A stretch of 37,812 bases of DNA from positions 1 to 37,812 of the forward strand of contig JBGAIN010000076.1 in the NCBI GenBank assembly GCA_044225505.1, read 5' to 3'. The stretch comes from Limisphaerales bacterium. Lineage in GTDB: Bacteria > Verrucomicrobiota > Verrucomicrobiia > Limisphaerales > SIBE01. Shown one piece after another: positions 12,145 to 33,226 of the stretch. The translations under genes were made by a program, and so were the position numbers. A model generated the notes under the pieces. That model was not told the DNA's origin. It ran no database searches and saw nothing but the letters and a program-made list of their open reading frames with translations. Within the stretch, counting starts at the first letter, position 1. Every line of letters begins with the position of its first letter.

Positions 12145-12150
12145 TCACCT

Positions 12151-12179
12151 AGCCTAATGAACCTGAGACGGGAAACCAA
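12151..12179 (-). promoter_or_regulatory. Putative promoter for xerC, probably leaderless
   Basis: Minus strand TTGGTT-17 nt-TAGGCT, ending 6 nt before GTG 12144. Confidence 0.5.
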
Positions 12180-12242
12180 GTGCCGAACGGTTATCTAAGG
12201 CAACATGAAGGTGTTCGGCGTTGGCTTTTGCCAATCATCGGC

Positions 12243-12354
12243 CGTATTTAACACGGATAGAACAGGTAAATGGCATGGAATTAACACGGAGTTTACCCGT
12301 GTTAAACCCGTGTTATATCCCTGTTATGTCCGTGTTATATCCGTGTTAAATACG
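12243..12354. repeat. Palindromic array of 11-bp units (consensus CCGTGTTAWAT) with 17-bp terminal inverted repeats
   Basis: Ends CGTATTTAACACGGATA / TATCCGTGTTAAATACG. Four inverted units (12246-12289, two degenerate), a 7-nt spacer, then five direct units (12297-12351). Confidence 0.9.
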
Positions 12355-12646
12355 AACAAGTAAGGGTTGCTACGGCTTGGAAGGACTGTTTTGTATTTGC
12401 GGGCCGCCTTTCCAGCGGGGGTTTCGGATCGTCCGACGGTTGACATTTCGTCCTTTCCACTCCTTTGAGGGCTCGCGGGGCGAGCGGTCTCCCCTCGGTC
12501 GGCGCGGATTGGGAAAGAAAGGAATCGGAGCTGGCGTATCGCGCGACGGTCGCGCTTGGCTCAACGCGCCTGACCTAGGCACCCCTCAAGGATCGAAAGG
12601 AGGGAATCGGGCTATCGTGGAACGATCCCCAGGTCTCCAAAAACGG

Positions 12647-15511
12647 TTATTCGAGGCCTTCAGACGTGTCGCCGGTGGGGGCCGAGGCGGGGGCTGTCTC
12701 ACGGGGTTCGAATTCAAACCCGACCTTGCCGCCGTCCTCCAGGGCCAGGTAAGCGGCAAACGGACGACCTTTCTTGGAGACGAAGTTCTTGAGCAATTCC
12801 GTCCGCCCGGTGGCGATGAGGCGGGTTGCTTGGGCGCGCTCGATGGGTTGATTAAGAATCGTCTTTCCGACCTTAAACTTGCAACGTTTTGTCTCCGCTT
12901 GGCTATTCGCGCACAAATATTCCGACTCTCCTTCGAAAACGGCACCACCGCAGATCGGGCAGACTCCCAGGGATTCTTGACCGGTGAAGTCCAGCTTCAC
13001 CTTGGGCTCCTTCGCCTTGGCCGCGCGAGCTTTGCCCTTGGCCTCTCGGGGAGCGAACTCGAAGCTGATCGCGCCTTCTTTGTCTAAAACCAAGTGAGCT
13101 TTGAACGTGCGACCATTCCTCTTCGACACAAACTTCTCGAGGAGATCCGTTTTGCGCACCGATAACAGCTTGGCCATTTGAATCCGGTCGATCGGTTGCT
13201 GGAGGATCACTGCATTGGATCGGAACTTGCACGTTCGGTTGGGGCCGACGGCATGTTCGCAGAGGTAGTTCATTCCGTTTTCGAACACACGTCCGCCGCA
13301 CTTCGGGCAGACCCCGACCGGCTCTTTGCCTGAAAAATCCACTGGCTCAGATTGTCCTTCGGCCTCTTTGCCGTTTTGTCCAAAATCCAGTTCAGCTTTG
13401 AATTCCGGGGTCAGCTTGATCATGGCCGAGAACGGTCGCCCCATCCGGCTGCGGAAACCATGGATCGGTCCGACGGCCTTTTGGGTAATCAGTTGCTCGA
13501 TTTCAGGGGCTTCGAGCTGGCGTCCGGCCATGATCTTCCAAAGCGCAAACCCACAGGCCTCATTCGAACACTGGAATTTTTTGTAAGTTTCTTTAACCTC
13601 GCCTCCACACTTGGGACAACGCGCCGTAAGCGTCCCAAAATCCCCTGGGATGGTATCGTGTTCGTGCGCTTTGGCCTTTTCGACGATATCGCGCGTCATC
13701 GCCGCGATCTCTTTCATGAACTCTTCGCGCGAGAGTTGCCCATGCTCCATTTGACGCAATTTGAATTCCCAGCCCCCAGTGAGTTCGGGGGCGGTCAGTT
13801 CGGGAATGCGTAACCCTCGAAGCAGCGCCATGAGCGAGGAAGCTTTCGCTGTTGGATGGAGTTCTTTGCCCTGACGGGCCATGTACTTTTCATGAATCAG
13901 GCCTTCAATAACGGCCGCGCGAGTTGCAGGCGTGCCCAGGCCTTTCTCGGCCATGGCTTCACGCAATTCCTCGTCTTCGACGAGTTTGCCCGCTCCTTCC
14001 ATGGCGCTCAGCAAGGTCGCTTCCGTGAAGCGCGGTGGGGGCTTCGTCTGATTCAGGACGACTTCAATTTGTGACGTTTGGACCGACTCGTTCTGTCGAA
14101 CGGGCACGAGGTTGGCGCCTCCTTCGGTGTTCTCTGTCGGCACTTCGCGTCCGTAAACGGCGAGCCATCCGGCTTTGACCAACACTTTGCCCTCAGTCTT
14201 GAACGGCTCGTTTTCGACTCGGGTGATCCGGGTAGTGACCAGAAACTCCGCTGCCGGAAAGAAGATCGCCAGAAATCGCTTTGCGACCATGTCGTAGATC
14301 TTGGCTTCGGCATCGGTGAGATGTTTGGCCTCGAGCGACGTCGGGATGATCGCAAAGTGGTCGGAGACCTTGGCGTTGTTAAAGATTCGCTTATTCGGAC
14401 GCACCCAGTCGTTCTCGAGAATCGTTTCGGCGAACTTCCCATAAGCGCCGCCGCGCAACGCTTGCATCGTTTCGCGCACAGTTGCGACGTAGTCCTCTGG
14501 CAGGGCTCGAGAATCTGTTCTTGGGTAAGTTAAGACTTTGTGCCGTTCGTAAAGAGACTGGGCCAAAGAAAGGGTTTGGCTGGCCGAAAACCCGAAACGG
14601 GAGTTGGCTTCTCTCTGCAAACTTGTCAGGTCATAGAGCAGCGGCGAGGCTTGAGTCGTCGGCTTGCTCTCTTCGGTGACAATTCCGGGTTTTCCCAGGC
14701 AACGGTCTCGGATCGCATCCGCTTGCTGCTGGTTCCAAACGCGCTCAGCCTTGAGTTCGGGATCTGGGTCTTTCTTGTCGCGGGAGAACTTTTCGTCGAA
14801 CCATCGACCGGAATAAGTTCCGGACTCCGCCTGGAATGTTCCGATCACTTCCCAGTAATTACGGCTTTGGAAGCGCCGAATCTTCTCCTCTCGCTCGACG
14901 ACGATGGCTAGCGTCGGAGTTTGAACCCGGCCGACCGTAGTGAGGTAGAAGCCACCCGTTTTAGAGTTGAACGCTGTCATGGCCCGCGTTCCATTGATCC
15001 CAACGAGCCAGTCCGATTCCGATCGACAGACAGCGGCGTCGGCCAAGGGTCGCATCGCGCCGTCTTCGCGCAAAGAGCGAAAGCCTTCCCGAATGGCATC
15101 GGGCGTCATCGATTGCAGCCAGAGGCGTCGAATGGGCTTTTCGGCTCCAACATGGCGAACGATGTAACGGAAGATCAGTTCGCCTTCGCGTCCAGCGTCG
15201 CAGGCATTGATCAGCGCATCGACATCCTTCCGTTTAATCAGTTTCGTCAAGAGTTTGAGCCTGGGTTCATTCTTCTCGATCGGCTTCAGGTCAAAATAGG
15301 GCGGAATCACGGGCAGGTGCGTGAATGTCCACTTGCCACGTTTAGCTTCGAATGCCTCCGGGGCAGTGATTTCGAGAAGATGCCCCACCGCGGACGAGAG
15401 GACATACCGGTCACTTTCGAAGTAATCGTGTTCCTTTTTGAAGCCGCCTAGCGCCTTGGCGATGTCGCTGGCGACAGACGGCTTCTCAGCAATGATCAGT
15501 GCTTTTCCCAT
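12647..15511 (-). CDS. topB: DNA topoisomerase III (type IA) with C-terminal Cys-rich repeats
   Basis: Motifs IAEKPSVA, CDAGREGELIF, VGRVQTPTL, LTYPRTDS and GLGTPATRA; three CPxCGG repeats near the C-terminus. Confidence 0.92.
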   Translation of the reverse strand: MGKALIIAEKPSVASDIAKALGGFKKEHDYFESDRYVLSSAVGHLLEITAPEAFEAKRGKWTFTHLPVIPPYFDLKPIEKNEPRLKLLTKLIKRKDVDALINACDAGREGELIFRYIVRHVGAEKPIRRLWLQSMTPDAIREGFRSLREDGAMRPLADAAVCRSESDWLVGINGTRAMTAFNSKTGGFYLTTVGRVQTPTLAIVVEREEKIRRFQSRNYWEVIGTFQAESGTYSGRWFDEKFSRDKKDPDPELKAERVWNQQQADAIRDRCLGKPGIVTEESKPTTQASPLLYDLTSLQREANSRFGFSASQTLSLAQSLYERHKVLTYPRTDSRALPEDYVATVRETMQALRGGAYGKFAETILENDWVRPNKRIFNNAKVSDHFAIIPTSLEAKHLTDAEAKIYDMVAKRFLAIFFPAAEFLVTTRITRVENEPFKTEGKVLVKAGWLAVYGREVPTENTEGGANLVPVRQNESVQTSQIEVVLNQTKPPPRFTEATLLSAMEGAGKLVEDEELREAMAEKGLGTPATRAAVIEGLIHEKYMARQGKELHPTAKASSLMALLRGLRIPELTAPELTGGWEFKLRQMEHGQLSREEFMKEIAAMTRDIVEKAKAHEHDTIPGDFGTLTARCPKCGGEVKETYKKFQCSNEACGFALWKIMAGRQLEAPEIEQLITQKAVGPIHGFRSRMGRPFSAMIKLTPEFKAELDFGQNGKEAEGQSEPVDFSGKEPVGVCPKCGGRVFENGMNYLCEHAVGPNRTCKFRSNAVILQQPIDRIQMAKLLSVRKTDLLEKFVSKRNGRTFKAHLVLDKEGAISFEFAPREAKGKARAAKAKEPKVKLDFTGQESLGVCPICGGAVFEGESEYLCANSQAETKRCKFKVGKTILNQPIERAQATRLIATGRTELLKNFVSKKGRPFAAYLALEDGGKVGFEFEPRETAPASAPTGDTSEGLE

Positions 15512-20066: not shown

Positions 20067-23000
20067 ATGATTGGCGTTACCAGACCCGTGATCGTCGGAC
20101 GTTGGGGCTTCCTAGTAATCGTGATTCTGACAGCATTTTTGTCCGACGGACTGGGTGCTACGGTCGCGTGGAAAGCCGGATCCAGTGGAAACTGGAACGA
20201 CCCTGGCAATTGGAGCGGCAATGCCGTGCCCAGTGCGGGAGACATTGTCCTGATCACCAATGCGGGAACCTACACAGTTTCATTGAATGTCTCTGCCAGC
20301 GTTAGCGAGTTAACCCTGACCGCGCCAACGGGAAAGGCATCGCTGCTCTTGAACGCCGGGACTTTAACGATCGACAATCTGGCGACGGTCGGTGCTGGCG
20401 GGGCTTTGCGCCTGGATTCAGGTGGGATCTTGAGCGGCAGTGGAGATATTTCCATCAATGAGTTTACCTGGAGTGGCGGACAGATTGAAGGGGCAGGGAA
20501 GTTGGTATTTCCAGCGGGAGCGGTGGTGGACGTGGTCAACGGAGGGCAACATAACCTAAGGGATCGAACGATCGTGAACGGAACGACGGTGAACTGGCCC
20601 AGCGAGACGCCGACTTACGTGGGTTTTGGCACAGTGTGGCAGAACCAAGCTGGATCGGTCTTGGAGATGAGTGGGGATGCGCAGATGTATTTCTGGGGTG
20701 GCAACCCTGGCTCCTTTCAGAACGCTGGCACAGTGCGAAAAAGCGGAGGAGCAGCGGTCGGCTATTTTGATTGGAATTTCACTAACGCAGGGACTGTGAG
20801 TCTGCAAAAAGGAACTCTCAATTTTCGACAGGGCTACGTCCAGACAGGTGGCCGAACTGATTTGACCGGGGGCAACTACGGCGGTGCGCCTGTTCTCATG
20901 GACATTCAAGGTGGGACATTGGAGGGAGCGGGCCTAATTGACACCGGGGTCTCGATTGGGGGAGAGCTCCGGCCGGGCAATCCCCTTGGGACCCTTTCGG
21001 TCGGGTCGAATTGGAACCACACGAACACCGTCTCGAGCCGATCGATTTTCCAACTGGGCGGGCTCGAGAAAGGAGTGAGCTACGATCATTTTGCCGTCGG
21101 TGGCGCGTTGAACATTAATGGCGAGTTGAAAATCGAGTTTGCGAACGGCTTTGAACCGAGCGGCGGAGACGCGTTTGAACTCATGCATGGAGCCCTCGTT
21201 AAAGGAACTTTTACAGCGACCAATCCGCCCTCGGGATTTGCACCAGACCTAACCTACACGACGACCAACGTCGTCTTACGATTGATAAAGACGGGCATTG
21301 TCGCGCCGCAAATCACGACGCAGCCGCTGAATGTCACCGTGAAAGACGGGCAGCCCGCGAGTTTTCAAGTCATCGCGTCGGGAGGAGGTCTCACCTATCA
21401 ATGGCGGAAGAACGGCACGAATATCAACGGAGCCACTGCCGCGACTTACTCTATTGCAGCTGTCCGGTTTTCCGACACCGGCAGCTACACTGTCGTGGTG
21501 GCCAATGCTGGCGGATCGCAAACCAGCGACGGCGCGGTGTTGCGGGTTATTCCAACGAATCTCGATTCCGGTTTGGTCGCTCGCTACGCGTTCGAGGAAA
21601 ACCTGAACGACTCAGTCAGCGGACGAAACGGGGTTACCAACGGCTCCCCTGGCTACGTGCCCGGCGTTTTGGGGAAAGCGGTGCGCTTAGACGGACGCAC
21701 CTCGATTCCGCTCGGTTCGAACCCAGCCGAGCTCCTCGTGGATGCAAATAACGCTATCTCCGCTTCATTCTGGATCCATCCTCGCGCGCTCAAAGAAATG
21801 GTTCCGCTGAGACTGGCCACCGCATTCGGAGAGTTCGCGGTTTACCTGAGTGCGGGACCGACGGATGGGTACGGAACGCATTTTGGTTTTCGAGGTCATC
21901 TCGGACCCATGACGCGCGATCCACGAGCTACCTTTGAAAGTAAAGTGGGCTGCTGGACCCATGTGGTGGTTGTTTTTCAAGGCGGATCGCCGGACAGCCT
22001 GGCTAGCTATGCGCTATTTATTAATGGTGAGTCTGTGCCGTTCGATTCGTCAGTTCAGCTGGGAGGACCATCCAATCTCAATGAACTGGGAACTAACTTG
22101 CAGGGTGTCAACGGATGGGTGATTGGCGATATGGACGAAGTCCGTGTCTACGGAAGGGCGCTTCTGGCTGAGGAATCCGTAGTCCTCGCCGCGGCGCCGC
22201 CAGAATGCCTGCCGGAGATTGTGCAGCAACCTGTCGACGCTGGGGCTCAGTTGGGCGGAACGATCCGTCTTGAGGTGGGGGCGATCGGGGGAGCGTCGTT
22301 ACGTTATCAATGGTTCAAAGGCCCCATCGCGGTTCCGAACGCGACCAACGCAGTGTATAGCGTCATCGCGGCCCCAGAAATCGAAGGAACGTATTACGTT
22401 TCCGCAAAGAACGATCGGGGCGAAGTTCGCAGCGTCGAAGTGAATGTCAATGTGGTCGTTCCGCCGCCCCCAGGCTATGCTGGCCTTACTACCGGAACTT
22501 CCGAGGCGATTACGGCAGCCTCGTTTCTCAGTCCCTTTTCCGGGTGGTATACGACTTTGGGAGGGAGTGTTTATCTGACGGGTAACGGCGGCAGCACCTG
22601 GACGTTTTCCAACACGGGCTTCAATGTGCCGCTCTACGCGATCCAGCTCGTTGGGGGCGTGGGGTATATCGCGGGCGCGGGTGGAACAATCGGAATTTCG
22701 ACCAACAATGGAGCAAGTTGGATACGCTATAGCACCGGGACGACAGTGACCTTCTACGGATTGTCCTTTTACACATCGCAAAGCGGTTGGGCCGTTGGCT
22801 CGGGAGGGACAATTTGCTATTACAATGGAAGCTCCTGGGTTCCTTACGCCACAGGGACAGGGGAAACGTTTTATTCTGTCGCAGTCGATGGTGGAACCTC
22901 CGGCGTTGCTTGGGCGGTGGGGTCCAGTGGGATCATCTGCCGCTATTCAGGGGGACAGTGGATCCCGGTGCAAACCGGCACCTCAGCGACCTTTTACGGC

Positions 23001-23852
23001 GTGAGCTTTCTCAATCCTTCGTTCGGCTATGCGGTCGGTTCCGGCGGGACGATCTGCCGTTGGAACGGGACGGCTTGGGTTGCCTTGAACACTGGGACTA
23101 CAGGTACGTTCCGAAACGTTGTTATAGTCGATGCGACGACCGCTTATGCCATCGGCGACGGTGGCCTGTTCTGCGTCACGCGCGACGGTGGCACGACCTG
23201 GACTTCTCTGGGCTCGGGCACGAAAGCGAATTTGAACGGGCTGGCCTTCAGCGGTGGGAGGTTGTTCTCCTTCGGGGCAGGCGGAACAGGGTTCTCATTC
23301 GTTTCCCCGGGACAAGTGGTAAATCAACCGCCAAACATTGCCATTCTGTTTCCCGCGCCGAATGCGTCTTTCCTCGCTTGCCTGCATATCCCGGTCACGG
23401 CGGCTGCGAGCGATCCAGATGGAACAGTCTCTAAAGTCGAATTCTACCGTGGCCAGTTTAAGTTGGCCGAGTTCACGACTCCGCCGCCACGAAATCTGCC
23501 GTTCCGGACCAGATTCGATACCACAGCGCTCGGATCGTACGAACTCCGTGCCGTGGCGACCGATAATTCGGGTGCCAGCACCGTCTCTGAGCCCGTGACG
23601 ATCAATGTCTTGCCCTGGCCCTTGGACACCGGCGTCGTGGAGGACTACAACAATCCAGGAGGGTGCACGCTGTGCTTATTCGGGGAAGTTGGCGAAGATT
23701 ACATCCTCCAAAGAACCGACGACATTGTGCCTCCTCAGAACTGGACTAGCATTTCGACCAACAACGTTCCGGAGCCGTTTCTCCGCGTTACGGATACAAA
23801 TGTGGTTGGGCGCATTAAGCGGTTCTATCGATTCCAAAAGGTGAATCCTTGA
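20067..23852 (+). CDS. Large secreted multidomain protein: beta-helix-like region, Ig, LamG, Ig, 7-blade YCF48/BNR-like propeller, bacterial Ig, C-terminal RFYR domain
   Basis: Signal peptide; WNDPGNWS start motif; Ig motifs YQWRKNG and YQWFKG; LamG motifs WTHVVV and GDMDEVRVY; 40-aa propeller repeats; SDPDGTVSKVEFY; C-terminal TDTN...RFYR. Confidence 0.88.
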   Translation: MIGVTRPVIVGRWGFLVIVILTAFLSDGLGATVAWKAGSSGNWNDPGNWSGNAVPSAGDIVLITNAGTYTVSLNVSASVSELTLTAPTGKASLLLNAGTLTIDNLATVGAGGALRLDSGGILSGSGDISINEFTWSGGQIEGAGKLVFPAGAVVDVVNGGQHNLRDRTIVNGTTVNWPSETPTYVGFGTVWQNQAGSVLEMSGDAQMYFWGGNPGSFQNAGTVRKSGGAAVGYFDWNFTNAGTVSLQKGTLNFRQGYVQTGGRTDLTGGNYGGAPVLMDIQGGTLEGAGLIDTGVSIGGELRPGNPLGTLSVGSNWNHTNTVSSRSIFQLGGLEKGVSYDHFAVGGALNINGELKIEFANGFEPSGGDAFELMHGALVKGTFTATNPPSGFAPDLTYTTTNVVLRLIKTGIVAPQITTQPLNVTVKDGQPASFQVIASGGGLTYQWRKNGTNINGATAATYSIAAVRFSDTGSYTVVVANAGGSQTSDGAVLRVIPTNLDSGLVARYAFEENLNDSVSGRNGVTNGSPGYVPGVLGKAVRLDGRTSIPLGSNPAELLVDANNAISASFWIHPRALKEMVPLRLATAFGEFAVYLSAGPTDGYGTHFGFRGHLGPMTRDPRATFESKVGCWTHVVVVFQGGSPDSLASYALFINGESVPFDSSVQLGGPSNLNELGTNLQGVNGWVIGDMDEVRVYGRALLAEESVVLAAAPPECLPEIVQQPVDAGAQLGGTIRLEVGAIGGASLRYQWFKGPIAVPNATNAVYSVIAAPEIEGTYYVSAKNDRGEVRSVEVNVNVVVPPPPGYAGLTTGTSEAITAASFLSPFSGWYTTLGGSVYLTGNGGSTWTFSNTGFNVPLYAIQLVGGVGYIAGAGGTIGISTNNGASWIRYSTGTTVTFYGLSFYTSQSGWAVGSGGTICYYNGSSWVPYATGTGETFYSVAVDGGTSGVAWAVGSSGIICRYSGGQWIPVQTGTSATFYGVSFLNPSFGYAVGSGGTICRWNGTAWVALNTGTTGTFRNVVIVDATTAYAIGDGGLFCVTRDGGTTWTSLGSGTKANLNGLAFSGGRLFSFGAGGTGFSFVSPGQVVNQPPNIAILFPAPNASFLACLHIPVTAAASDPDGTVSKVEFYRGQFKLAEFTTPPPRNLPFRTRFDTTALGSYELRAVATDNSGASTVSEPVTINVLPWPLDTGVVEDYNNPGGCTLCLFGEVGEDYILQRTDDIVPPQNWTSISTNNVPEPFLRVTDTNVVGRIKRFYRFQKVNP

Positions 23853-23922
23853 GGGACGACCTAGGAAACGCGTCCGGACCGCAGCGGTGACTTTGGTCGG
23901 CCGCTTTGGGCTCCCGGGCTCG

Positions 23923-25326
23923 TCATGGATCCCGGTGGCTCGCTGTCAGTATCATCGCTTGTCCGGGGTTTAAACTCAGGGTAACGCATTGGTCGTGAAT
24001 TGCGACCTTGCCAGTGGGATGCGGTCCGTCCACGCTCAAGCTCGCGGTCTGAGCTGTCGTGACACCGTTCCAGCCGGGTGGCAATGTCCAGCGCTTTGAG
24101 CGATAACCATTGCTACTGAAAGCCACGATGGTTCGGTTCAGCCACAATGCCGGAATGAAGAGATCTTCACCCACTCGGATGGCCTGAGAGCCCTTCTCTG
24201 CGTCTGAATTGTTTTGGTAGTACCAAGGCACAACGTCATGGCAGAATTTCTGCAGAAGACCTGAAAGCTGGACTGGATCAGTCTTTATTTCTGGCTCGGC
24301 CCGCATCGGAGTGCCGCAGTAAAGGCTCGGCGGGATCTCTTTGGCCGGCGGTTGATAATCCCAAGCCATGGGTTGCAGGCCGACGAACGCATCTGGACGG
24401 AGAAATGTGCTGCCTTCGCTGGTGACGTCAATGCCTCGATCTCGGAAGTAGCGAAAGATTTTTCGCTGCGCTGCGATTTCTCGTTCCAGTGAGTAACCTA
24501 AGAACGGGCTGATGCGTTGGTCCGACTTGTCTTGGTCGGGATATTTTTCTTGAGGGTAAGCGTGTGGAATTGGGCGCAGAGAGTGGAACGCGTCAATGTG
24601 AATAGTGCCCGCCTCAGCGACGGGGAGCATGTGCAGCAATGCATCAATCCGCTTTCGCGCGAGTCCGGTTTCCCACTCGCGCGCGTAGCTTAGGTAGTAA
24701 ATTTGACCGATGACGGGATCGGTTCCCGGAAAGTCCTCAAACTCGCCTTTGATTAAGCGGCCTTGAGCATCTTTCGCAATCACATCTTGCGCGAGATACG
24801 TGGGCCACATTGGACTATCTTCATACGCATCGAACATGTTGATGTGAAGACTGACGGTTGTGTGATAATGGAAGCCTTCGGCCATTAACCACCGGAGGCT
24901 ATCGACGGCTGTCGGATCTTCGGCGCGTTTCAGTCGAGGATTGACCACCGACCAATCGGGATACTTTGAATCGTGACCATCGTGTTGCCAGCCGACCAAG
25001 TAAACAATCTTCGGGATTCCCAAGGTCAAGTTGTCCAGGCGCCGGATGACGTCGCGCGCTTGGGCGAAGGTTAGGCAAACCTGTGATTGGTTTCCGGTTT
25101 GTTTGAGGGCTAGGAAGATTTTGGTGACGAGCGTTTGGTGATAACGGTGTCGGTAAGGTCGCTCCGGTTGCCTGGTCGCGCGCCAGTCATAATAGTCTCC
25201 GGAGGGGTCACCGAGTCCTCGAGACTCGACTTCGGTAGGGAGAAGCTGCACGGGGAGAAGTAGCGCAATAGCTGCGAGAATTAACCACCTGTGCCGCCGT
25301 GACCGTGATTTATCGAGGCTTGTCAT
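23923..25326 (-). CDS. Secreted GH101-like (endo-alpha-N-acetylgalactosaminidase family) TIM-barrel protein
   Basis: Signal peptide; motifs YLVGWQHDGHDSKYP, HINMFDAY, IHIDAFH and TSEG resemble the GH101 core. Family recalled, not searched. Confidence 0.65.
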   Translation of the reverse strand: MTSLDKSRSRRHRWLILAAIALLLPVQLLPTEVESRGLGDPSGDYYDWRATRQPERPYRHRYHQTLVTKIFLALKQTGNQSQVCLTFAQARDVIRRLDNLTLGIPKIVYLVGWQHDGHDSKYPDWSVVNPRLKRAEDPTAVDSLRWLMAEGFHYHTTVSLHINMFDAYEDSPMWPTYLAQDVIAKDAQGRLIKGEFEDFPGTDPVIGQIYYLSYAREWETGLARKRIDALLHMLPVAEAGTIHIDAFHSLRPIPHAYPQEKYPDQDKSDQRISPFLGYSLEREIAAQRKIFRYFRDRGIDVTSEGSTFLRPDAFVGLQPMAWDYQPPAKEIPPSLYCGTPMRAEPEIKTDPVQLSGLLQKFCHDVVPWYYQNNSDAEKGSQAIRVGEDLFIPALWLNRTIVAFSSNGYRSKRWTLPPGWNGVTTAQTASLSVDGPHPTGKVAIHDQCVTLSLNPGQAMILTASHRDP

Positions 25327-25525: not shown

Positions 25526-25542
25526 TTGGCACGATGCGTGCA
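25526..25542 (+). promoter_or_regulatory. Sigma-54 (-24/-12) promoter of the four-gene operon
   Basis: TTGGCACGATGCGTGCA differs from consensus YTGGCACGNNNNTTGCW at one position, about 83 nt upstream of ATG 25625. Confidence 0.8.
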
Positions 25543-25624
25543 TTCCACACTCAGAGCTTAACCACGGGCGTTCGGAAGCGGTGGTGAGTTGCTTCTGCGC
25601 AGCGGCCCGAAGCGCATCCAAGGT

Positions 25625-27043
25625 ATGCAAAACTCCGATTACGAAAACCAGTTGTTTGATGAGTCGTTCTACGGTCCGGGGCGGCACGAAGAGCCCGAGG
25701 CGTTTGGCGTGGAAGGCGAACACTCCCTCTTCAGCGACACCGAGGAGACGAAACTGACCGCGGAGATGCTCGAGGTTACGAACGAAGCCGAATTGCAGCA
25801 GTTCCTCCAACGTTTAGTTGCCGGAGGGGCGGGAGAAGCCAAACGCCTGCCCGTCTTTCGTTACCTGGAACCGTTGCTTCGACAGGTTGCCGTCCAGACG
25901 TTGCCGTCGGTGTTCCAGAATGCGCAAGGCGCATCTCTGGGGACCCGCAACGGTACCGCTGGCAGCTTGGCCGACGCGGCCGGGGGTTTGTTTGGACTCG
26001 AATTGGAAGGGTTGAGCCGTGAGGACCAGGAATTTGAAGCGGCGCGGCAATTTGTGCGTTTCGGGACTGCGACCGTGCGCCACGGCCGGCGTTTGCCTGC
26101 TTCGATCCCACCGCAGGCCGCCGCGCGGCGCGCGTTCCATGCGGCAGCCAGACGTTATGCTCCGGGCTTGCATCGCGGGTTCGGGATGCGCAGGCCAGGC
26201 TATCGGGGCGAACCCACTACCGATGCGGCGTCGCCTTTCCCCATTGCGGTGACGTGTGATTGTCATTGCGGTTCGCCAGCCGCAGAAGAAAGCAGTGCTG
26301 CTGGCCAAGCTGCCCCATCTCCTTTGCCGGATAGTCAGCCGGCGAACTCAACTGACTCAAAAACTCTAACCAGTGAAGAAATCCATATGCACGATCTAGA
26401 TCGCACGACCATGGAAGTGACCGACGAAACCGAAGCATTCGAATCCGAGGAATTTCAAGAATTCGAAGGTTCGGGAGACGGGCTGTTTAACGAGGACGAA
26501 GAGGCCGAGATGGCGGCCGGCTTATTGGAGATCAACGACGAAGCGGAGCTTGATCAGTTTATCGGGTCCTTTCTGAAAAAGGCACGAAGCTATTTAGGTG
26601 GGGCATTAAAGTCGCCGTTGCTGGGGCCATTAGGTGGCTATCTCAAGGGCGCTATCAAGAAGGCTTTGCCTATCGCAGGCGGGGCGCTCGGCAATTTGGT
26701 CGCCCCAGGGGTTGGTGGTGCACTCGGTTCTCAATTGGCTTCCAAAGGCAGTTCGATGCTCGGATTTGAAATGGAAGGCATCGCTACGGAGGACCAGGAG
26801 TTTGAGGTCGCCAAACAGATCGTGCGCATGGCGGCAACCGCGGCGCAGGAGGCAGCACAGTCCCCCGCAGCCACTGTCGATCCACAAGGGGCGGCCAAGA
26901 CCGCCATGATCAGCGCTGCCCGCGCTCATCTGCCTGGGTTGCTGGAAGGTCAGGCTAAATCTAAAGGAGGCGGATGTCACTGCCACCGGCCGGGGGGACG
27001 TTGGTATCGCCGCGGGCAACAGATCATCCTGGTGGGAGCTTGA
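25625..27043 (+). CDS. Hypothetical acidic helical protein with two tandem homologous domains and a glycine zipper
   Basis: Repeated blocks LEVTNEAELQQFL / LEINDEAELDQFI and GLELEGLSREDQEFEAARQFVR / GFEMEGIATEDQEFEVAKQIVR. ATG 25625 preferred; in-frame internal ATG at 26387. Confidence 0.85.
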   Translation: MQNSDYENQLFDESFYGPGRHEEPEAFGVEGEHSLFSDTEETKLTAEMLEVTNEAELQQFLQRLVAGGAGEAKRLPVFRYLEPLLRQVAVQTLPSVFQNAQGASLGTRNGTAGSLADAAGGLFGLELEGLSREDQEFEAARQFVRFGTATVRHGRRLPASIPPQAAARRAFHAAARRYAPGLHRGFGMRRPGYRGEPTTDAASPFPIAVTCDCHCGSPAAEESSAAGQAAPSPLPDSQPANSTDSKTLTSEEIHMHDLDRTTMEVTDETEAFESEEFQEFEGSGDGLFNEDEEAEMAAGLLEINDEAELDQFIGSFLKKARSYLGGALKSPLLGPLGGYLKGAIKKALPIAGGALGNLVAPGVGGALGSQLASKGSSMLGFEMEGIATEDQEFEVAKQIVRMAATAAQEAAQSPAATVDPQGAAKTAMISAARAHLPGLLEGQAKSKGGGCHCHRPGGRWYRRGQQIILVGA

Positions 27044-27044
27044 T

Positions 27045-28349
27045 ATGCTGACGGCGACTCCAGCATCCGTTTACTTGGGCGGGGAGGCTCGCTCGCTACT
27101 GACGCGTTTAGCGCGAGTGCGTCCGTTTTCGCTGGAGATCCCTTCGGTTCTCGCTGCGGCGGTGACTCCCCCCGCCCAGACGGCTGTGGAAGCCTATATG
27201 GCTCAAGGGCGGCGACGGCTCCGGGCGATGGTGCTTCGTTACCTGGATTGGCTCAAGGGTCCGGAGGCGCAGAGCGAGACGCCGGCAATATTGCAGGCGC
27301 AGTTCACGCTCTTGCGCTTGGAATTCAACACCATGCTCTCGCAGTTCGACATCTTCGCTGACGCGCTCGTGCAACGGACCGAGGTGGACAATGGGGTACG
27401 CCTGGCGGGGTTGGACGCCGTTGCGGCCGATGCGCTGCGATTGCCGGGCGCTCCATTCGAACCGCCGCCAGTGATCTGTTATTTGGACAGAGGGCACGGA
27501 GCGGCGATTCGGCGTGCTCGGACGCGGCTGCCTGGTGGGGGTGAGAATCCGGTGGCGATCATTCGGGTTCCTCGTGAGCGGATGATCGGCAGCGGCATTG
27601 CCTCGTCGCTAATCCACGAAGTTGGCCATCAGGCAGCCGCTCTGCTGGATTTGTTGCCCTCGTTGCGGGCCACTCTGCAGGTCCGGTCGCATCAGCACCA
27701 AGGGGAGGCGACGGCGTGGAGGATGTACGAACGATGTCTTTCTGAGATCGTTGCTGATTTCTGGTCCGTGGCGAAGCTGGGAGTGTCGGCGACGACTGGG
27801 TTAATGGCGGTCGTCAGTCTGCCCAGAGCGTTTGTTTTCAGGATCAACCTGAATGATCCCCACCCGTTTCCTTGGATTCGAGTGCGACTGAGCGCGGCGA
27901 TGGGGCGAGCGCTCTACCCGCATCCTCAATGGCGGCGCTTGGAAGAGCTCTGGGGCTCGTTTTACCCGCTAGCGGGCCTCGACGAGCGCCGACGTCGCGT
28001 CATCGATCACCTCATCGCAGCGCTGCCCGAGTTCGTGCGGGTTTTGACCCAGCATCGTCCTCGCTTGTTAGGTGGCCGAACCTTGGCGGAGGCTTTGGCC
28101 GTTGCGGACCGCCAACCAACGCGTCTGTCGCAGCTCTATCGTTTGTGGATCGATTCTCCCATGCTCATGCGAAAGGCAGCGCCGTCCCTGGTCTTCGCCG
28201 TGATAGGCCAGGCGCGCGCGGATGGCGCGATCAGTCCGGAAACCGAGAGCCGTCTTCTTACGGATCTGCTGACCTACTGGGCGTTGCGCGGAACTCTGGA
28301 CGCGTCGGCATACTGCGGCCGGAAACTGCGTCTGTTTCGCCGCACCTGA
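27045..28349 (+). CDS. Hypothetical HExxH (zincin-like) protein
   Basis: SLIHEVGHQ (27615-27629), downstream SEIVADFW and DPHP; starts 1 nt after the upstream stop. Confidence 0.8.
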   Translation: MLTATPASVYLGGEARSLLTRLARVRPFSLEIPSVLAAAVTPPAQTAVEAYMAQGRRRLRAMVLRYLDWLKGPEAQSETPAILQAQFTLLRLEFNTMLSQFDIFADALVQRTEVDNGVRLAGLDAVAADALRLPGAPFEPPPVICYLDRGHGAAIRRARTRLPGGGENPVAIIRVPRERMIGSGIASSLIHEVGHQAAALLDLLPSLRATLQVRSHQHQGEATAWRMYERCLSEIVADFWSVAKLGVSATTGLMAVVSLPRAFVFRINLNDPHPFPWIRVRLSAAMGRALYPHPQWRRLEELWGSFYPLAGLDERRRRVIDHLIAALPEFVRVLTQHRPRLLGGRTLAEALAVADRQPTRLSQLYRLWIDSPMLMRKAAPSLVFAVIGQARADGAISPETESRLLTDLLTYWALRGTLDASAYCGRKLRLFRRT

Positions 28350-28395
28350 TCACCACCGAAGCCGAATACCACAGTCACTCTAACCAAATCACACC

Positions 28396-30273
28396 ATGAA
28401 GATACAAACCGTCTCCTTTGACACTACGCCGAAGCTCAACCTGATGCAGGGCCGCCCTGTAAAACTCGATGGCCAACTGATCGACGACAGCCAAAGAATC
28501 TTAACTCCTGAATTGTTGAAGAATTACAGGTTTCAGTGGACAATTTGGCCGAACGAGACGGATGTGCACCCAGATCCCCTCGAGCCTTGGAAGGCGCAAT
28601 GGGTGCCGACGAACGTTGGAGAATACGAGATTCACCTGACGGTAAAAGACGCGGAGCCCAACGCGGGAACGTTGCCTAGTGAAGGGATCCAGTTCTCGCG
28701 TGACGTGCTGGTGCAAGCTTCGGCGCTGAGAGATTCAATTACCGTCACCTTGGCCCCATCGGGGTCAAGTCGCACCAATGATGATGCACTTTTCCAGAGC
28801 ATTCGCGAGAGTACCGCGGCTCTCGATTTTGAAGCTTACCGGACTTTCATTGACAATGTCATGTGTCACGGCCCGGGCGCAATTACCGATACTCGACAGA
28901 GGAATACGTTCCAGGCGGTGAATCGGCGCCGGGCGACGGTGTTCCCCGGCATCGACGCGTATCAGCGGCTCAAAGTGGCGACCGAGGTCTACGTGATGCT
29001 GAGCGTTCGCGTCTTAACGGACTACACCTTCGCGGGGTTTGACCCCGGACTTTACAAGAACAAGCACGGCCAGACGCTGACGCTGGCGGATCTGCAGAAC
29101 CAGTGGCAGACCTATTTGAAGGCAGACCACGGTGCGCTGTTGCTGCCGATCGACCAACTCATCCGCGCGAAGCTCCACGAACCGATCGATCCGGAGCATG
29201 ATCACGGCGTTAGCGTCTGCCAAGGTTTGCTCCAAGAGAAGCTGCGACGCCCCTGTTTCTTTGAGTTGATTTGGTCTTACTGGCACGAGGAAGGAATGCT
29301 CGTGCAAACGATGAAGGCGATCGCCCTGCGTTTTCAGAATAAGCGCACCTCCGAGCACGACCCGCTGGCGAACTTGGATGTGAGTCCATTGCATCCGTTA
29401 AGTAACTTGCTTTGGGGTTATATCCAAGAGGAGCAACATCGGTTGACTGTTCCCAGGCGGGCGTACGAGTACGATCATCAATATGGGTTGTCGCTCGACG
29501 GCAAGGCGGTCCCTATGCTTCGATCCGCGGACAGTCGTTCCAAATTCCTCGAGGCGTTCCACAATCTTCTCCATGGCGCCTTACTCTTTTACAAGCAGGA
29601 CGATGACACCACGAAACGAGCCGATGCCTTCCCAGTGCTCAACGGCTTGAAGGAAGTCCATCTCCTGCTACGCGAAGGAATGCACAATCAGTTCGGCGAT
29701 CTGCCATCGGCCGCGCGCATTGAGATGCTCATGGAACAGTGGATCCTGGCCCGGCCGGAGATGAAAGAGTTTTTGGGCGGCCGTGCCATGTTGCCTTACA
29801 GCGAGGACTGGATGGATCGCGTGGATACCATGAAGAAGCTGAAAGGTTGGACCGATGTTTCGATTACCTATTTCAATGAGTTGGCTGAGTTTGGAGAGAA
29901 GCTCTTGCTCTCCATGCGGCACGGCGATTGGAGCAACATCCACGACGCGACTTTCGCGGCTCATTGGGCCCGAGAATGGCGTCCGGAAATCCAGCAGTAC
30001 ATTCATGCCTATCGCACCGTGACGGGTGTGGATCTCACCCCGCAGCAAGCGGATGTTCGGTTGTCGGCGGATCGCTATCTCCAACCGTCCGTGCACCTGC
30101 GTAAGCGCCTGGAATCTCAGCGCCACCAGACGCCGAGCCGAGCAGGCTTCGGGTCGCCACGCCGCGCGGATTCCGCCATCCCAGCTGGCCATGCGCACAA
30201 TGGCAACTTTGTTACCGACGCGGACCGTCCTAATTCGCGGCGCGAAGCGTTGGAATTGTCCGACGAACTCTAA
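28396..30273 (+). CDS. Hypothetical 625-aa protein with an N-terminal PKD/Ig-like region and an aromatic-rich helical body
   Basis: Long ORF in operon; YRFQWT...GEYEIHLTVKD fits a PKD-like pattern; no signal peptide or TM segment seen. Confidence 0.82.
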   Translation: MKIQTVSFDTTPKLNLMQGRPVKLDGQLIDDSQRILTPELLKNYRFQWTIWPNETDVHPDPLEPWKAQWVPTNVGEYEIHLTVKDAEPNAGTLPSEGIQFSRDVLVQASALRDSITVTLAPSGSSRTNDDALFQSIRESTAALDFEAYRTFIDNVMCHGPGAITDTRQRNTFQAVNRRRATVFPGIDAYQRLKVATEVYVMLSVRVLTDYTFAGFDPGLYKNKHGQTLTLADLQNQWQTYLKADHGALLLPIDQLIRAKLHEPIDPEHDHGVSVCQGLLQEKLRRPCFFELIWSYWHEEGMLVQTMKAIALRFQNKRTSEHDPLANLDVSPLHPLSNLLWGYIQEEQHRLTVPRRAYEYDHQYGLSLDGKAVPMLRSADSRSKFLEAFHNLLHGALLFYKQDDDTTKRADAFPVLNGLKEVHLLLREGMHNQFGDLPSAARIEMLMEQWILARPEMKEFLGGRAMLPYSEDWMDRVDTMKKLKGWTDVSITYFNELAEFGEKLLLSMRHGDWSNIHDATFAAHWAREWRPEIQQYIHAYRTVTGVDLTPQQADVRLSADRYLQPSVHLRKRLESQRHQTPSRAGFGSPRRADSAIPAGHAHNGNFVTDADRPNSRREALELSDEL

Positions 30274-30355
30274 CCCTTAGTCACTCATGCCAGCTTGGCC
30301 TGGCCCTCGAACCACGGCGGCGGGCGGGGCTGGCGCAACTTAAAACTATCGAGCT

Positions 30356-31159
30356 ATGAATACACCCTTCACCTTTGATACTGAAACGTTCGAGTGGATT
30401 GCACCCGAGCCCGAAATCCCACTGGAGTTCGAAGAGGAAGTTCCGCCGCAGGGACCCGTACCGCTGGTTCGGAATTTCTCCAGCTCCGATGCGGATTGTG
30501 CGGCTGCCTTGCGAAGCGCTGGAAAGAGCAAAGCTCAGGCACTGGCCTTGATCAATGCGCAGCTGCGGTCGGCCATTCACATGCTTCGTGTGGCCTCGAA
30601 CAAGCTGAAACCGGGCGTTCGCACGGCTCCAACGGACAACTTGTTCAAAAAGATCTTCCGGGTGCCTCCCACTTTTGTCCCGACGTGGCTCAAACCGACG
30701 GCGGCGATTAAGAACCGTGGAGATGTCGTGGCCGTTCGTTGCCGTCGGGTCGCGGACCTGCTCGCCAGCGGTCGGATTCGGTTCTTCTGTTCTATCAACT
30801 CGGCAAACTGCCCGGATTGCGGCAATGACAACTCCGACTTTGCCTGTTCGAGTTGGGGAGACGAAAGCGTTGCTCCAAATCGAAGTAATGTCATTTGCCT
30901 GGGCGCTCCGTTCTGGGATGACATGAAGCGCGGCAATCGGACGTCGACTTTATCAACGTTGATCCATGAGCCTTTTCATATCTACTTTGGCAAATACGTG
31001 ACCGCGCATGCTCGTCCTGGAGGCGAGTCCGTTGGAAAATTCGGTGGGATCAACTGCATCGTTCGCTTCGTGTTTGAAGTGAACGGCCTGACTGCACCTA
31101 AACGAGTGGTCGACCGGTGCGTTGGCACCCCAGTCCGAAGTGCCGCCACCGGCTTCTGA
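30356..31159 (+). CDS. M35-like HExxH metallopeptidase domain behind an acidic N-terminal leader
   Basis: VICLGAPFW...STLIHEPFH (30965-30979); LFKKIF helix; 9 Cys; acidic first ~30 aa. Confidence 0.7.
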   Translation: MNTPFTFDTETFEWIAPEPEIPLEFEEEVPPQGPVPLVRNFSSSDADCAAALRSAGKSKAQALALINAQLRSAIHMLRVASNKLKPGVRTAPTDNLFKKIFRVPPTFVPTWLKPTAAIKNRGDVVAVRCRRVADLLASGRIRFFCSINSANCPDCGNDNSDFACSSWGDESVAPNRSNVICLGAPFWDDMKRGNRTSTLSTLIHEPFHIYFGKYVTAHARPGGESVGKFGGINCIVRFVFEVNGLTAPKRVVDRCVGTPVRSAATGF

Positions 31160-31550
31160 TCCAACGCCGACGATTCAAGCCAACCGGGGCGAGACTCCCT
31201 GAGGTTGGACGGATACCGCCAAGAGTCTTGACGCAAAGTGATCGGGATTAACTCGAGGGCTCCGGCGGTATCGATACGGAGTTTGGGCATTCCCGCTTAC
31301 TGTTTTCCGAGGAGGCCTTCCTCAAGGCGGTGGCGTTGCGCGCGGATGTCAAATCGGCTCGTCTTGGATCCCGTTTTTCGGGATCAAACCGCGCCTTGGT
31401 GAGCTCCATACCACTATTCTTGAACGTGCCTTCGAGGTGGCCATATGCTCAATACTCGCCTGAGCACGAGTTGGTTACCGTTGTGCTGGTTCCCTTGTTT
31501 CGCTCTTCGTAAGGCCTCTATGGGTTGACCCACCGCGGTTCCTTCGCTTC

Positions 31551-31594
31551 TGACCCACTGGTAACCCACTGCGGAGTGGGTTACCAGTGGGTCA
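31551..31594. repeat. Perfect 20-bp inverted repeat built from 11-bp subunits
   Basis: TGACCCACTGGTAACCCACT-GCGG-AGTGGGTTACCAGTGGGTCA; an extra partial unit TGACCCACCG at 31526-31535. Confidence 0.88.
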
Positions 31595-31744
31595 CCTGCG
31601 ACAGAAGAGCGGCAGAAGACCGACTGGAGCACCTCGGAAGAACACTATCGTCGTGGCTTCAGGCAAGACAACAGAGCGTCCTCGAATCCGTCGGTAAGGC
31701 CTTGATAACAAACGCTCTGGATGCAATTTGAGAGCGATCTAGAA

Positions 31745-33226
31745 TTACGGTGCCGCCATGGCAGTGGCTATTTCGCTGGAATTTGTGTCCGGGATCGCGT
31801 CCGGTTGTTCAAAGCAGGCGATCTGATCCTTTTCAGCTTGCTGGCGTCGAGCCGCACGGCGCAATTGTAATGCCCGATCAGTAACCTGGAGTCTTTTGGC
31901 AGCTCGCTGGAGATTGCCGTTTTCGTCGTCCAAGGCCGTTTGGATGGCGAGCTCCGCGGTCAGATTGTTGATCCCTCTAAGCCCGACGCCCATCGCCAGC
32001 GCCCGGCGGATGCCATCCTGGAAATGGCTGTCCTGCCAAGGTCGGCGCAGCCCGTCCGTGTCAGCGATTCGTTCTTCGGGAGGAACGTCCCCGACGGTGA
32101 GCGGACCATCCCCCACATGTCGACTCAACATCCGCGTTACCAAGTGGCGCAGCTCCCGAATGTTGCCTGGGTAATCGCGCGTGAGCAGGTAATCGCGAAC
32201 GGCCGCATCCGGTTCGGGCGGCGGTGTGTGCCCGGACATTTGTTGGAGAAAATGTCGACTTAGCGGCAAGATATCCTGCCGACGTGCGCGGAGCGGAGGC
32301 AGAGCGAAGGTCCAATTGGCGATCCGATAGTAAAAGTCGCGACGGAATGCGCCACGGGCTTCTTCCTCGATCAAGTTCCGATTCGTCGCGCAGACCAGCC
32401 GGAAGTTGACTTGCCGCCAAGTGTTGCTTCCCACCCGCTTGTAGACCCGCTCTTGGATCACCCGCAACAATTCGGCTTGGAGAGCGAGTGGAAGCTCTCC
32501 GACTTCATCCAAAAAGAGCGTGCCAGAATCGGCTAGAGCAAAAGCCCCGTCACGGGACGAAATCGCGGACGTGAAGGCGCCACGCTCGTGTCCAAAAAAC
32601 TCACTCCCAGATAGTTCAGGAGAGACCGTCGTGCAGTCCAGCACGACAAACGGCCCTTTGTTAGGACGCCGATCCAAGCGGTGGACCAAGCGTGCGATCA
32701 ACTCCTTGCCCGTGCCGCTTTCTCCCGTGATCAAGACGGAGCTATCGCTGAATGCCGCCACCTCCACCACTTGCCGAAGCACCGCGAGCCAAGCCAAGCT
32801 TCCACCGGCCAGTTCTGACTGCAGCTCAGGGGATTGAACGAGTTGATCCACCATCGCGTAACGCTCGAAACGGGCCGCCACCGTCGCGGCGGCGTCGGGC
32901 ATGCTGTCCCAGGCGAACACGTCCGCAGCGCCGGCTTGGAGCAAGCGCCAAACCGAACCTTCGCTCAACGTTTTGGCGGCGGTCCCCACGGCCAGCACTC
33001 GGTCAAAGCCTTGTCGTGACGCTTTTTGCAGCCGATCGCAAAGCGCTGCGTCGACCCGGTCGAAGATGACCATACCCGGACCGCCGGGCGGGTCCTTGGT
33101 TGGCGAAACGAGATCGACGCCGCGTTTTCGAATGGCTTCGATAATGGCGTCGCCGTGAGTGAATCCTCCTGGGAGGTAAGATTGAAACCAGCCTTGGACT
33201 TGCGCGATACGGGAACACGACTCCAT
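31745..33226 (-). CDS. Sigma-54-dependent transcriptional activator (bEBP) with a degenerate receiver-like N-terminus
   Basis: Walker A GESGTGKE, SEFFGHERGAFTSA, Walker B LFLDEV, RRDFYYR, YPGNIREL and a Fis-type HTH (GNLQRAAKRLQV). Confidence 0.93.
   Translation of the reverse strand: MESCSRIAQVQGWFQSYLPGGFTHGDAIIEAIRKRGVDLVSPTKDPPGGPGMVIFDRVDAALCDRLQKASRQGFDRVLAVGTAAKTLSEGSVWRLLQAGAADVFAWDSMPDAAATVAARFERYAMVDQLVQSPELQSELAGGSLAWLAVLRQVVEVAAFSDSSVLITGESGTGKELIARLVHRLDRRPNKGPFVVLDCTTVSPELSGSEFFGHERGAFTSAISSRDGAFALADSGTLFLDEVGELPLALQAELLRVIQERVYKRVGSNTWRQVNFRLVCATNRNLIEEEARGAFRRDFYYRIANWTFALPPLRARRQDILPLSRHFLQQMSGHTPPPEPDAAVRDYLLTRDYPGNIRELRHLVTRMLSRHVGDGPLTVGDVPPEERIADTDGLRRPWQDSHFQDGIRRALAMGVGLRGINNLTAELAIQTALDDENGNLQRAAKRLQVTDRALQLRRAARRQQAEKDQIACFEQPDAIPDTNSSEIATAMAAP

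Follow-up and report, generated by a model that had tools for sequence, protein, structure and literature searches.

Background

Why would otherwise unrelated proteins, encoded side by side, begin with much the same acidic, phenylalanine-containing stretch? The question is raised by a window of 37,812 nucleotides (nt), the whole stretch of DNA analysed here, which is contig JBGAIN010000076.1 (positions 1 to 37,812, forward strand) of the Limisphaerales bacterium assembly GCA_044225505.1. Four genes of this window, which we call A, B, C and D, lie in a row beside the gene of a sigma-54 activator, in DNA of 57% GC. An initial annotation had picked out one hexapeptide in each half of protein A (EPEAFG and ETEAFE) and a third in the putative metallopeptidase D (DTETFE), and had proposed a common leader that is read by B or C. 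We find a looser motif behind the hexapeptides, placed at or near the N-terminus of A and of many cell-wall enzymes encoded beside it, within a gene cassette that recurs in several phyla. Whether the motif works as a common, functional tag linked to the A-B-C core is, in our estimate, evenly balanced.

Results

Three hexapeptides and a looser motif

The residues and positions originally given for the three hexapeptides are exact (Table 1), and in the six frames of the window the pattern [DE][TP]E[AT]F[EG] matches precisely these three instances. Genome-wide it has seven matches, these three included, in 77,787 six-frame stop-to-stop segments of at least 60 amino acids (aa) from the 9.04-Mb genome; the pattern was derived from the three instances afterwards, and these window and genome counts alone prove little. 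A looser form, E-x3-F-E, does stand above chance. Among D relatives, 36 of 107 have it within their first 30 residues, where composition-preserving shuffles give 8.4 +/- 2.6; among A relatives the figures are 47 of 120 and 10.1 +/- 2.9. In both families this is about fourfold over the composition-matched expectation. Around it lies an E/D/F/Y-rich N-terminal stretch of variable length and without evident structure.

When the A-family and D-family profiles were compared by hhalign, the single local match paired ETEAFE (A2 15-20) with DTETFE (D 8-13), with the consensus E~~~fE against e~~~Fe (probability 2%, E 0.024). This match is too short to show common descent, and the motif behaves as a short linear motif. 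Judged from these comparisons, the three hexapeptides appear to be window-specific versions of a loosely conserved motif, roughly hydrophobic/acidic-E-x3-F-E, at or near the N-terminus. The claim of a common leader motif is borne out in part: for the looser form, on whose conserved positions the window's instances sit, but not for the six-residue form, which is rare in relatives.

A conserved cassette in several phyla

Related loci were collected in two sets, one anchored on D and one of metagenome loci anchored on B, the second of which removes the bias of choosing loci by D; families of open reading frames (ORFs) were defined across loci by conservation. In 19 of 22 D-anchored loci, which represent at least five phyla-level groups and include Haliangiales, Bradyrhizobium, Chloroflexota, Acidobacteriota, Polaromonas and Solimonas as hosts, A (in one or two copies), B, C and, further on, D are colinear; two of the remaining three are contigs too short and one is a spurious match. 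A stands directly upstream of B in 61 of 61 B-anchored loci, in one to three copies, and C lies downstream of B in 36 of the 38 that have room. The activator gene was found in 17 of the 22 D-anchored loci and in 20 of the 25 B-anchored loci that have 5 kb or more downstream. A pyridoxal phosphate (PLP) aminotransferase-like gene (22/25 B-anchored loci) and an Amidohydro_2 gene (20/25) usually lie between C and the activator, and some loci have M20 peptidase genes. The genes that follow C are otherwise variable, and we refer to them as cargo: 17 of 25 B-anchored loci have cargo-family matches, and three have the D domain. The window's cassette is a minimal form without the aminotransferase-like and Amidohydro_2 genes (window 30274-31744, compared with L001-L021 and L036-L115). 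A, B and C together with the activator thus constitute a conserved cassette in several phyla, and D is one of many optional cargo genes.

B is highly conserved (53-62% identity across phyla), and at least 5802 B relatives, clustered at 90% and all unnamed, were found at E<=1e-3 among 8000 candidates scored. Pattern matching yielded at least 393 confirmed loci, among 597 matches listed. In the window's own phylum B occurs in one of 201 genomes searched, namely the window's own, whereas close relatives (53-74% identity) are found in Proteobacteria, Acidobacteriota, Chloroflexota, Nitrospiraceae and soil metagenomes. The island that holds A, B, C, D and the activator (window 25527-33226) was probably acquired horizontally. 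Homologues of B with 51-55% identity and at least 96% coverage are carried on megaplasmids or secondary replicons (NZ_CP032690.1, NZ_CP032685.1, NZ_CP118611.1 and NC_010625.1) of Rhizobium sp. CCGE531/532, Ensifer adhaerens and Paraburkholderia phymatum STM815, all of which are culturable. In some loci C, D, A or B is split over two or three frames (L016 8337-9967, L018 8715-9976, L019 4592-5371, L011 5608-6290 and 6302-7583); these are frameshifts or assembly errors of metagenome-assembled genomes, or decaying copies. A full-text literature search, as far as its listings and the opening lines of abstracts tell, found nothing on this cassette or its motifs.

The tag of protein D and of other cargo

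Protein D has 108 relatives, many of them fused to PG_binding_1, OmpA, VanY or Amidase_2 domains. Their N-termini mostly read M-x(1-5)-F-E-[IV]-[ME]-P-F-E, or the variant MCNCKxNE[YF]EL[LI]PEL, and this tag is followed by E/Y/F/G-rich repeats of widely varying length and then by the conserved Cys-rich HEPFH domain. When scored with a D-family matrix (NFEIMPFEF), 65 of 107 D relatives and 1 of 1070 shuffles have 12 bits or more; the matrix was trained on these same D N-termini. In an alignment of 18 tags from different cargo (alignment A4), the window's F7-D-T-E-T-F12-E13 is in register with the F-E-x-x-P-F-E of the others, F12 being invariant and F7 conserved in at least 90%.

At E<=0.1 D itself had no match to a peptidase model of Pfam or NCBIfam, and its family profile matched nothing meaningful among Protein Data Bank (PDB) sequences. 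Like the M35/aspzincin peptidases it has an HExxH motif in a small Cys-rich domain, and one relative (P0090) is labelled 'M35 family metallopeptidase' by one source. It differs from them in lacking those family and PDB matches, and in alignment A1 HEPFH is present but GTxDxxYG, which we take to be the Asp-bearing motif of M35/aspzincin peptidases, was not seen.

The cargo genes encode PG_binding_1, OmpA, VanY, Amidase_2, NlpC/P60, CHAP/DUF2272, M74-like and beta-lactamase-like domains besides the D peptidase; the tagged proteins other than A are enzymes of 250-1100 aa, and the same short terminal peptide is found on unrelated ones. The observation that unrelated domains of one gene cluster bear a similar acidic/aromatic N-terminal tag is borne out, by cargo as well as A. 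In 454,930 aa of locus ORF segments the matrix has 25 matches of at least 10 bits, 19 in cargo and four in A, and in most of the 19 the motif begins one to five residues after a Met. Within the B-anchored loci, 7 of the 144 ORF segments that lie between C and the activator had strong matches, and 0 of 428 outside the cluster; further tags in these loci are MFETMEFEW, MNDEFEVLPF and MNTLTFEAESFEF. A rule that combines composition with the motif core marked 18 of 40 cargo and 19 of 27 A proteins as tagged, compared with 0/20 B, 0/23 C, 0/21 activators, 1/18 of fam5, 0/11 of fam6 and 0/3 of fam7. A shared, cluster-specific tag is a plausible reading of these patterns. A 36-position profile of the tag (A4) gave five matches at E<=1e-3 among 1.84 billion representatives and is too short to map cargo diversity.

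More leader-plus-enzyme genes had been predicted elsewhere in this genome and in genomes carrying the operon. In operon-positive genomes they do occur inside the cluster, with Amidase_2, VanY, NlpC/P60, CHAP/DUF2272, M74, OmpA and PG_binding_1 domains among them, but scans of the genome that holds the window, by matrix and by composition, gave no further convincing tagged ORF, with the limit that the window's own D scores 5.4 bits, so that diverged tags would escape such a scan. Outside the cluster the prediction found no support: in five other operon-positive genomes a strict F-E-x-x-P-F-E pattern at the DNA level had 12 matches against 10 for reversed-pattern controls, and the one real tag among the 12 was the Polaromonas D gene itself. 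All D relatives with enough context lie within the cassette, so that tag and operon are inseparable with these data.

The A family and its charge blocks

Protein A is a true tandem duplicate, its halves being 34% identical over 182 columns (E 3e-25). Its likelier start is ATG 25625 (MQNSDYE...), since first-position A genes elsewhere match its MQN... start. In this window, as in its closest relatives (P0113, P0116, P0130), two A modules are fused in one frame, with the window's junction at 26384; at most other loci each module has its own gene, the two in tandem, and the cargo may be followed by a third A-like gene. The modules are about 210-250 aa long and conserved over their whole length. 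A had no family match in Pfam or NCBIfam, and an ESM Atlas search of A2 returned unnamed clusters alone (0.97).

Among 8000 candidates scored, 215 are related to the second half of A at E<=1e-3; the N-terminal statistics are from 120 listed relatives and the logo from 100 anchored sequences. The start MH[DN][IL]DRT is found in 100 of the 120, and the general pattern is MHDIDRTQLE…E-x3-F-E, with E10 at 93%, E14 at 66%, F18 at 37% and E19 at 63% in the logo. Variable E-[FY]-E repeats follow and lead into a helix of strong conservation (EEMELAAELLEVsnEAELDQFLG); beyond it come a glycine zipper that is cationic, another acidic patch (EDQEFE) and, at the C-terminus, a basic, conserved end (SGRWxRRGxxIxLxG). 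The window's second half keeps this order: MHDLDRT, an acidic E/F stretch, the ELDQFIG helix, a cationic glycine-zipper segment, acidic EDQEFE and a basic C-terminus bearing CHCH and GRWYRRG. In the first half, EPEAFG corresponds by eye to the P-E-x-E-x-F-E of first-position A genes elsewhere (NPEMEAFE, DPEWEAFE), a form present in a subset of these genes and modestly enriched, with weak statistics (52 of 121 A N-termini recovered).

Small Cys knuckles were also noticed. In the window's A they read CDCHC and CHCH (window 26230-26250 and 26960-27040); elsewhere, third-type A genes have CGCAKC directly behind Met, and some cargo tags contain CGCPKC or CAKC (examples outside the window are L015, L016, L019, L073, P0036 and P0042). 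These knuckles, by tags and at A-module ends, are a possible metal site.

Each half of A alternates between acidic (-7 to -9 per 20 aa), cationic (+3 to +5) and acidic blocks, and many cargo proteins have an Arg/Pro-rich basic linker, often long, straight after the tag (for example ...EDEYSRRRRGSTGRPQRRPQ and ...EEERGRAGGASRARAPLRR), which we take to be reminiscent of proline/arginine-rich antimicrobial peptides. Such linkers were seen in L002, L004, L008, L009, L015, L017, L019, L021, L048, L082 and L095, and not in the window's D. Both features would suit an acidic stretch that is only a charge-masking pro-region, neutralising the cationic segment behind it within the same molecule, with no dedicated reader and an incidental F-E pattern. 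We consider this unlikely: in the window's D and many short D relatives the tag leads directly into the catalytic domain with no cationic linker between, and a charge mask would need no invariant Phe at a fixed distance from Met1.

Export signals and the place of protein A

By charge and hydropathy, no Sec or Tat signal peptide was recognised in A, B, C or D, and hydropathy indicated no transmembrane helix in any of them. The N-termini of A and D carry a net charge of -3 to -7 per 20 aa, with -5 to -7 over the first 20-30 residues, and the maximum 19-aa Kyte-Doolittle hydropathy is 1.24 for A, 1.46 for B, 0.95 for C and 1.12 for D, none of these maxima being N-terminal or above 1.5. Cargo proteins likewise have no Sec-type N-terminus, although their domains act on peptidoglycan.

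Cargo without signal peptides, adjoining an A gene that is always present and sharing with it a similar acidic-aromatic N-terminus, could also be read as the contents of a particle or pore built from A. The tag would then be an uncleaved loading or export tag, the acidic N-terminus of A would fill the same site, and B and C would be assembly factors. This is quite unlikely in our judgement, as searches of Pfam, NCBIfam, PADLOC and PHROGs revealed no family of shell, tube, sheath or membrane proteins (A to D had no match in the last two) and A has no transmembrane helix.

Proteins B and C as possible readers

In B, H191, E192, H195 and E234 are invariant in 19 aligned sequences (HEVGH 191-195). 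B is accordingly the likeliest reader of the tag, as a processing peptidase, because of this invariant HExxH...E, and we treat it as a candidate metallopeptidase and candidate tag reader; that B cleaves the tag seems to us possible, if on the doubtful side. Its AlphaFold2 (AF2) model is all-helical, with a mean predicted local distance difference test score (pLDDT) of 79.7 and a predicted template modelling score (pTM) of 0.82. It had no Foldseek match in PDB or BFVD at E<=1e-3, and VIA-align wide returned generic helical bundles only (Z<=9.5, residues 1-110). When B (alignment A2) and residues 1-45 of D (alignment A1) were modelled as a complex, the score was 0.02 against a mark of 0.32; having no controls, this prediction is evidence neither way.

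C begins with a beta-sandwich (residues 1-107, window 28396-28720) that is unaligned in many relatives, its conserved part starting near residue 110; an ESM Atlas search with the beta-sandwich gave weak PKD-like leads only (0.84). A structure search with C was dropped on account of a poor AF2 model (pLDDT 53). Neither B nor C matched anything meaningful among PDB sequences or any Pfam/NCBIfam family at E<=0.1, and over 19 members each no consistent Pfam match appeared at E<=5; PT-TG, which matched 4 of 19 C members in the lenient Pfam scan (best E 0.08), is a lead only.

The leader had originally been likened to those of ribosomally synthesised and post-translationally modified peptides (RiPPs). 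A would then be a precursor that guides C, the PLP enzyme and the amidohydrolase, B the leader peptidase, and the tags on enzymes secondary. The HExxH of B, the conserved helix of A ahead of its Gly-rich region, and the aminotransferase-like, Amidohydro_2 and M20 genes often held by the cluster would fit. We nevertheless regard this as highly improbable: A modules are about 220 aa and conserved throughout, full-size tagged enzymes misfit a scheme of peptide maturation, the window has neither an aminotransferase nor an amidohydrolase gene, and neither B nor C matched a RiPP recognition element (RRE), a PqqD-like domain or a known family of RiPP enzymes, even when matches up to E<=5 were allowed (the model of C being unreliable).

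Points that weigh against a functional shared tag

Several observations count against a functional tag shared by A and cargo. The exact hexamer is rare, being present in 3 of 107 other D relatives (4 of 108 with the window's own) and in 1 of 120 A relatives. E-x3-F-E arises readily in acidic, aromatic-rich sequence, 8-10 times per roughly 110 shuffled N-termini, and as the members of each family are akin, motif counts are non-independent events whose independence is overstated. The tag of the window's D is weak against its family matrix, at the score given above. A relatives mostly open with their own MHDIDRT-type start and not with the D-type motif, the D-type matrix reaching 12 bits or more in 4 of 120 A relatives; the tags of A and of cargo may be separate inventions with composition alone in common. 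By the composition-plus-core rule 22 of 40 cargo fail, though some of these plainly start MNFEIMPFE; the rule misses such clear tags (MNFEIMPFES...) and is thus conservative. Other cargo really have no tag, the NlpC/P60 genes of L016, L019 and L021 in particular, and 8 of 25 B-anchored loci have no cargo-family match between C and the activator, though some of these eight have a tagged ORF in the unmatched gap. Nor does B match a known peptidase in its fold, and no site of cleavage stands out. Finally, no membrane protein or known export or secretion component was detected among the conserved cluster neighbours, which leaves an export role without a visible machine.

Taken furthest, these points would make the similarity a coincidence of composition, A and D each having evolved E/F/Y-rich, low-complexity N-termini in which hexamers arise by chance and serve no common function. 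Besides the rarity of the hexamer, such a reading could draw on the halves of A, which are out of register at the motif (BLAST pairs EPEAFG with EEFQEF, not with ETEAFE), on the hhalign probability reported above, and on a highly variable repeat number, for example in EYEGEYEGE runs. It is decidedly unlikely to us given the fixed N-terminal position, a Phe that is invariant or near-invariant across different cargo types, the enrichment over composition-matched shuffles and the restriction to cargo and A inside the cluster.

Operon layout and surroundings

Positions of the features are collected in Table 1. As the criterion for a sigma-54-dependent operon we took a GG-N10-GC promoter, which we assume to read TGGCAC-N5-TTGCW, together with a cognate AAA+ activator. 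The window has both, the promoter element being TGGCACGATGCGTGCA. Of 69 related loci, 34 have a pattern of this kind, TGGCAY-N5-[TCG]TGC[ATC], in the interval -450..+60 around their first A gene, and all 1,073,540 nt of those 69 loci hold only 40 plus-strand matches.

Table 1. Features of the cassette region of the window (positions counted from its first nucleotide)
Feature	Position	Strand	Description
Sigma-54 -24/-12 promoter element, TGGCAC-N5-GTGCA	25527..25542	+	Upstream of A; read directly
Protein A gene	25625..27043 (ORF opens with TTG at 25589)	+	Fused tandem duplicate of a ~220-aa module
Motif instance 1, EPEAFG	25691..25708	+	Acidic N-terminal stretch of A half 1
A half 2	26384..27043	+	MHDLDRT start; charge profile, alignment A5, column logo
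Motif instance 2, ETEAFE	26426..26443	+	A half 2, columns 14-19 of the A-family N-terminal logo
Protein B gene	27045..28349	+	All-helical HExxH protein
Protein C gene	28396..30273	+	N-terminal beta-sandwich, then conserved helical region
Protein D gene	30356..31159	+	Putative Cys-rich HEPFH (204-208) metallopeptidase with ~38-residue acidic N-terminal tag
Motif instance 3, DTETFE	30377..30394	+	N-terminal tag of D
Sigma-54 enhancer-binding protein gene	31745..33226	-	Sigma54_activat 6.1e-56

Upstream of the operon, window 20067-25326 encodes a 1261-aa protein with Ig, Big_7 and BNR/Ycf48-like repeats and, on the opposite strand, a GH101-like protein (Glyco_hydro_101, 6e-10); neither is conserved beside the cassette in other loci. 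At window 11185-15511 a tyrosine recombinase (Phage_integrase 2.5e-42, XerC/D-like) adjoins topoisomerase I. The rest of the window is housekeeping, with superoxide dismutase, ribosome recycling factor, sugar-nucleotide enzymes and a SpoIIE-PAS response regulator.

Discussion

The explanation that we favour is that the tag marks the substrates of a self-contained, sigma-54-driven cassette. Its constant part would be A, B and C, usually joined by the PLP aminotransferase-like, Amidohydro_2 and activator genes, and its variable part would be peptidoglycan-binding or -cleaving enzymes without signal peptides, D among them. Of its clients, A would be universal and the wall enzymes facultative. The tag may hold these proteins inert or soluble in the producer and offer the core proteins a handle; B would most likely be what removes it, and its removal would free the cationic glycine-zipper part of A and activate or release the wall enzymes. 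More broadly, and tentatively, A, B and C could be the core of an undescribed sigma-54-switched pathway that handles (activates, packages or exports) swappable, signal-peptide-less peptidoglycan hydrolases by way of a common hydrophobic-E-x3-F-E tag, its core being unrelated to known secretion, injection, compartment or RiPP machinery; we think this possible, though the chances are against it.

Several known systems invite comparison. Cargo of encapsulins and of bacterial microcompartments (BMCs) consists of enzymes with terminal targeting peptides, encoded beside constant core genes. The cassette is alike in that a short terminal tag is common to unrelated enzymes beside constant core genes, a likeness of arrangement that involves no homology test. 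It differs in that Pfam recognises no HK97-fold or BMC shell family in A, B, C or the conserved neighbours; the cassette's tag, moreover, is N-terminal, acidic and of variable length, and its cargo are wall enzymes expected outside the cytoplasm.

Effectors of other secretion and injection systems also carry recognition signals, such as the MIX and FIX markers of type VI secretion systems (T6SS) and the N-terminal signals of payloads of the Photorhabdus virulence cassette and extracellular contractile injection systems (PVC/eCIS). The peptidoglycan-hydrolase effectors of the X-type type IV secretion system (X-T4SS) are described, in the excerpted text of PMC8740702, as having a C-terminal XVIPCD recognition signal. 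The cassette resembles an antibacterial secretion system in its modular arsenal of Sec-less peptidoglycan hydrolases, each with a common recognition element, but no secretion or injection machinery genes lie in or beside it, and the element is a short acidic N-terminal motif and not a folded domain.

Precursors of cationic antimicrobial peptides have anionic propieces, and A likewise places an acidic N-terminal block before a cationic, amphipathic, glycine-rich one. The acidic block of the cassette, however, has a position-specific F/E motif and occurs on enzymes without a cationic block, the window's D being one. As far as the family and motif comparisons reach, no defining component of encapsulin or microcompartment, secretion-effector or anionic-propiece systems appears to be present in the cassette.

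Double-glycine leaders, cleaved by C39 peptidases, have the consensus E-L-x-x-I-x-G-G, and RiPP precursors, made of leader and core, are typically under 120 aa. In A, too, an N-terminal recognition region precedes a Gly-rich part, and the A-family E-L-D-Q-F-L-G-x resembles that consensus. Although G61 is invariant in the A family, position -1 is K, S, N, G or D; A precursors have 220-470 aa; and no C39 peptidase, ATP-binding cassette (ABC) exporter or RRE was detected in the conserved cluster.

Conclusions

The tag sits in a widespread, uncharacterised system that could prove more novel than the tag itself. Were the tag no more than a charge mask or an accident of composition, what remains would be an annotation note on an uncharacterised operon. 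Should it prove a genuine recognition signal, it would tell which proteins are the clients of a very common, wholly unannotated cassette and provide a simple experimental handle in the form of tag-reporter fusions, and the cassette's relatives in culturable Bradyrhizobium, Variovorax, Polaromonas, Ensifer, Rhizobium and Paraburkholderia make it experimentally accessible. The clients are wall hydrolases without export signals, and soil and rhizosphere bacteria may thus have a new route for antibacterial attack, for wall recycling under nitrogen limitation, or for controlled lysis. The A-B-C pathway, if real, would give soil bacteria across many phyla a new means of deploying wall-degrading enzymes, whether in killing neighbours, feeding on walls or programmed self-lysis.

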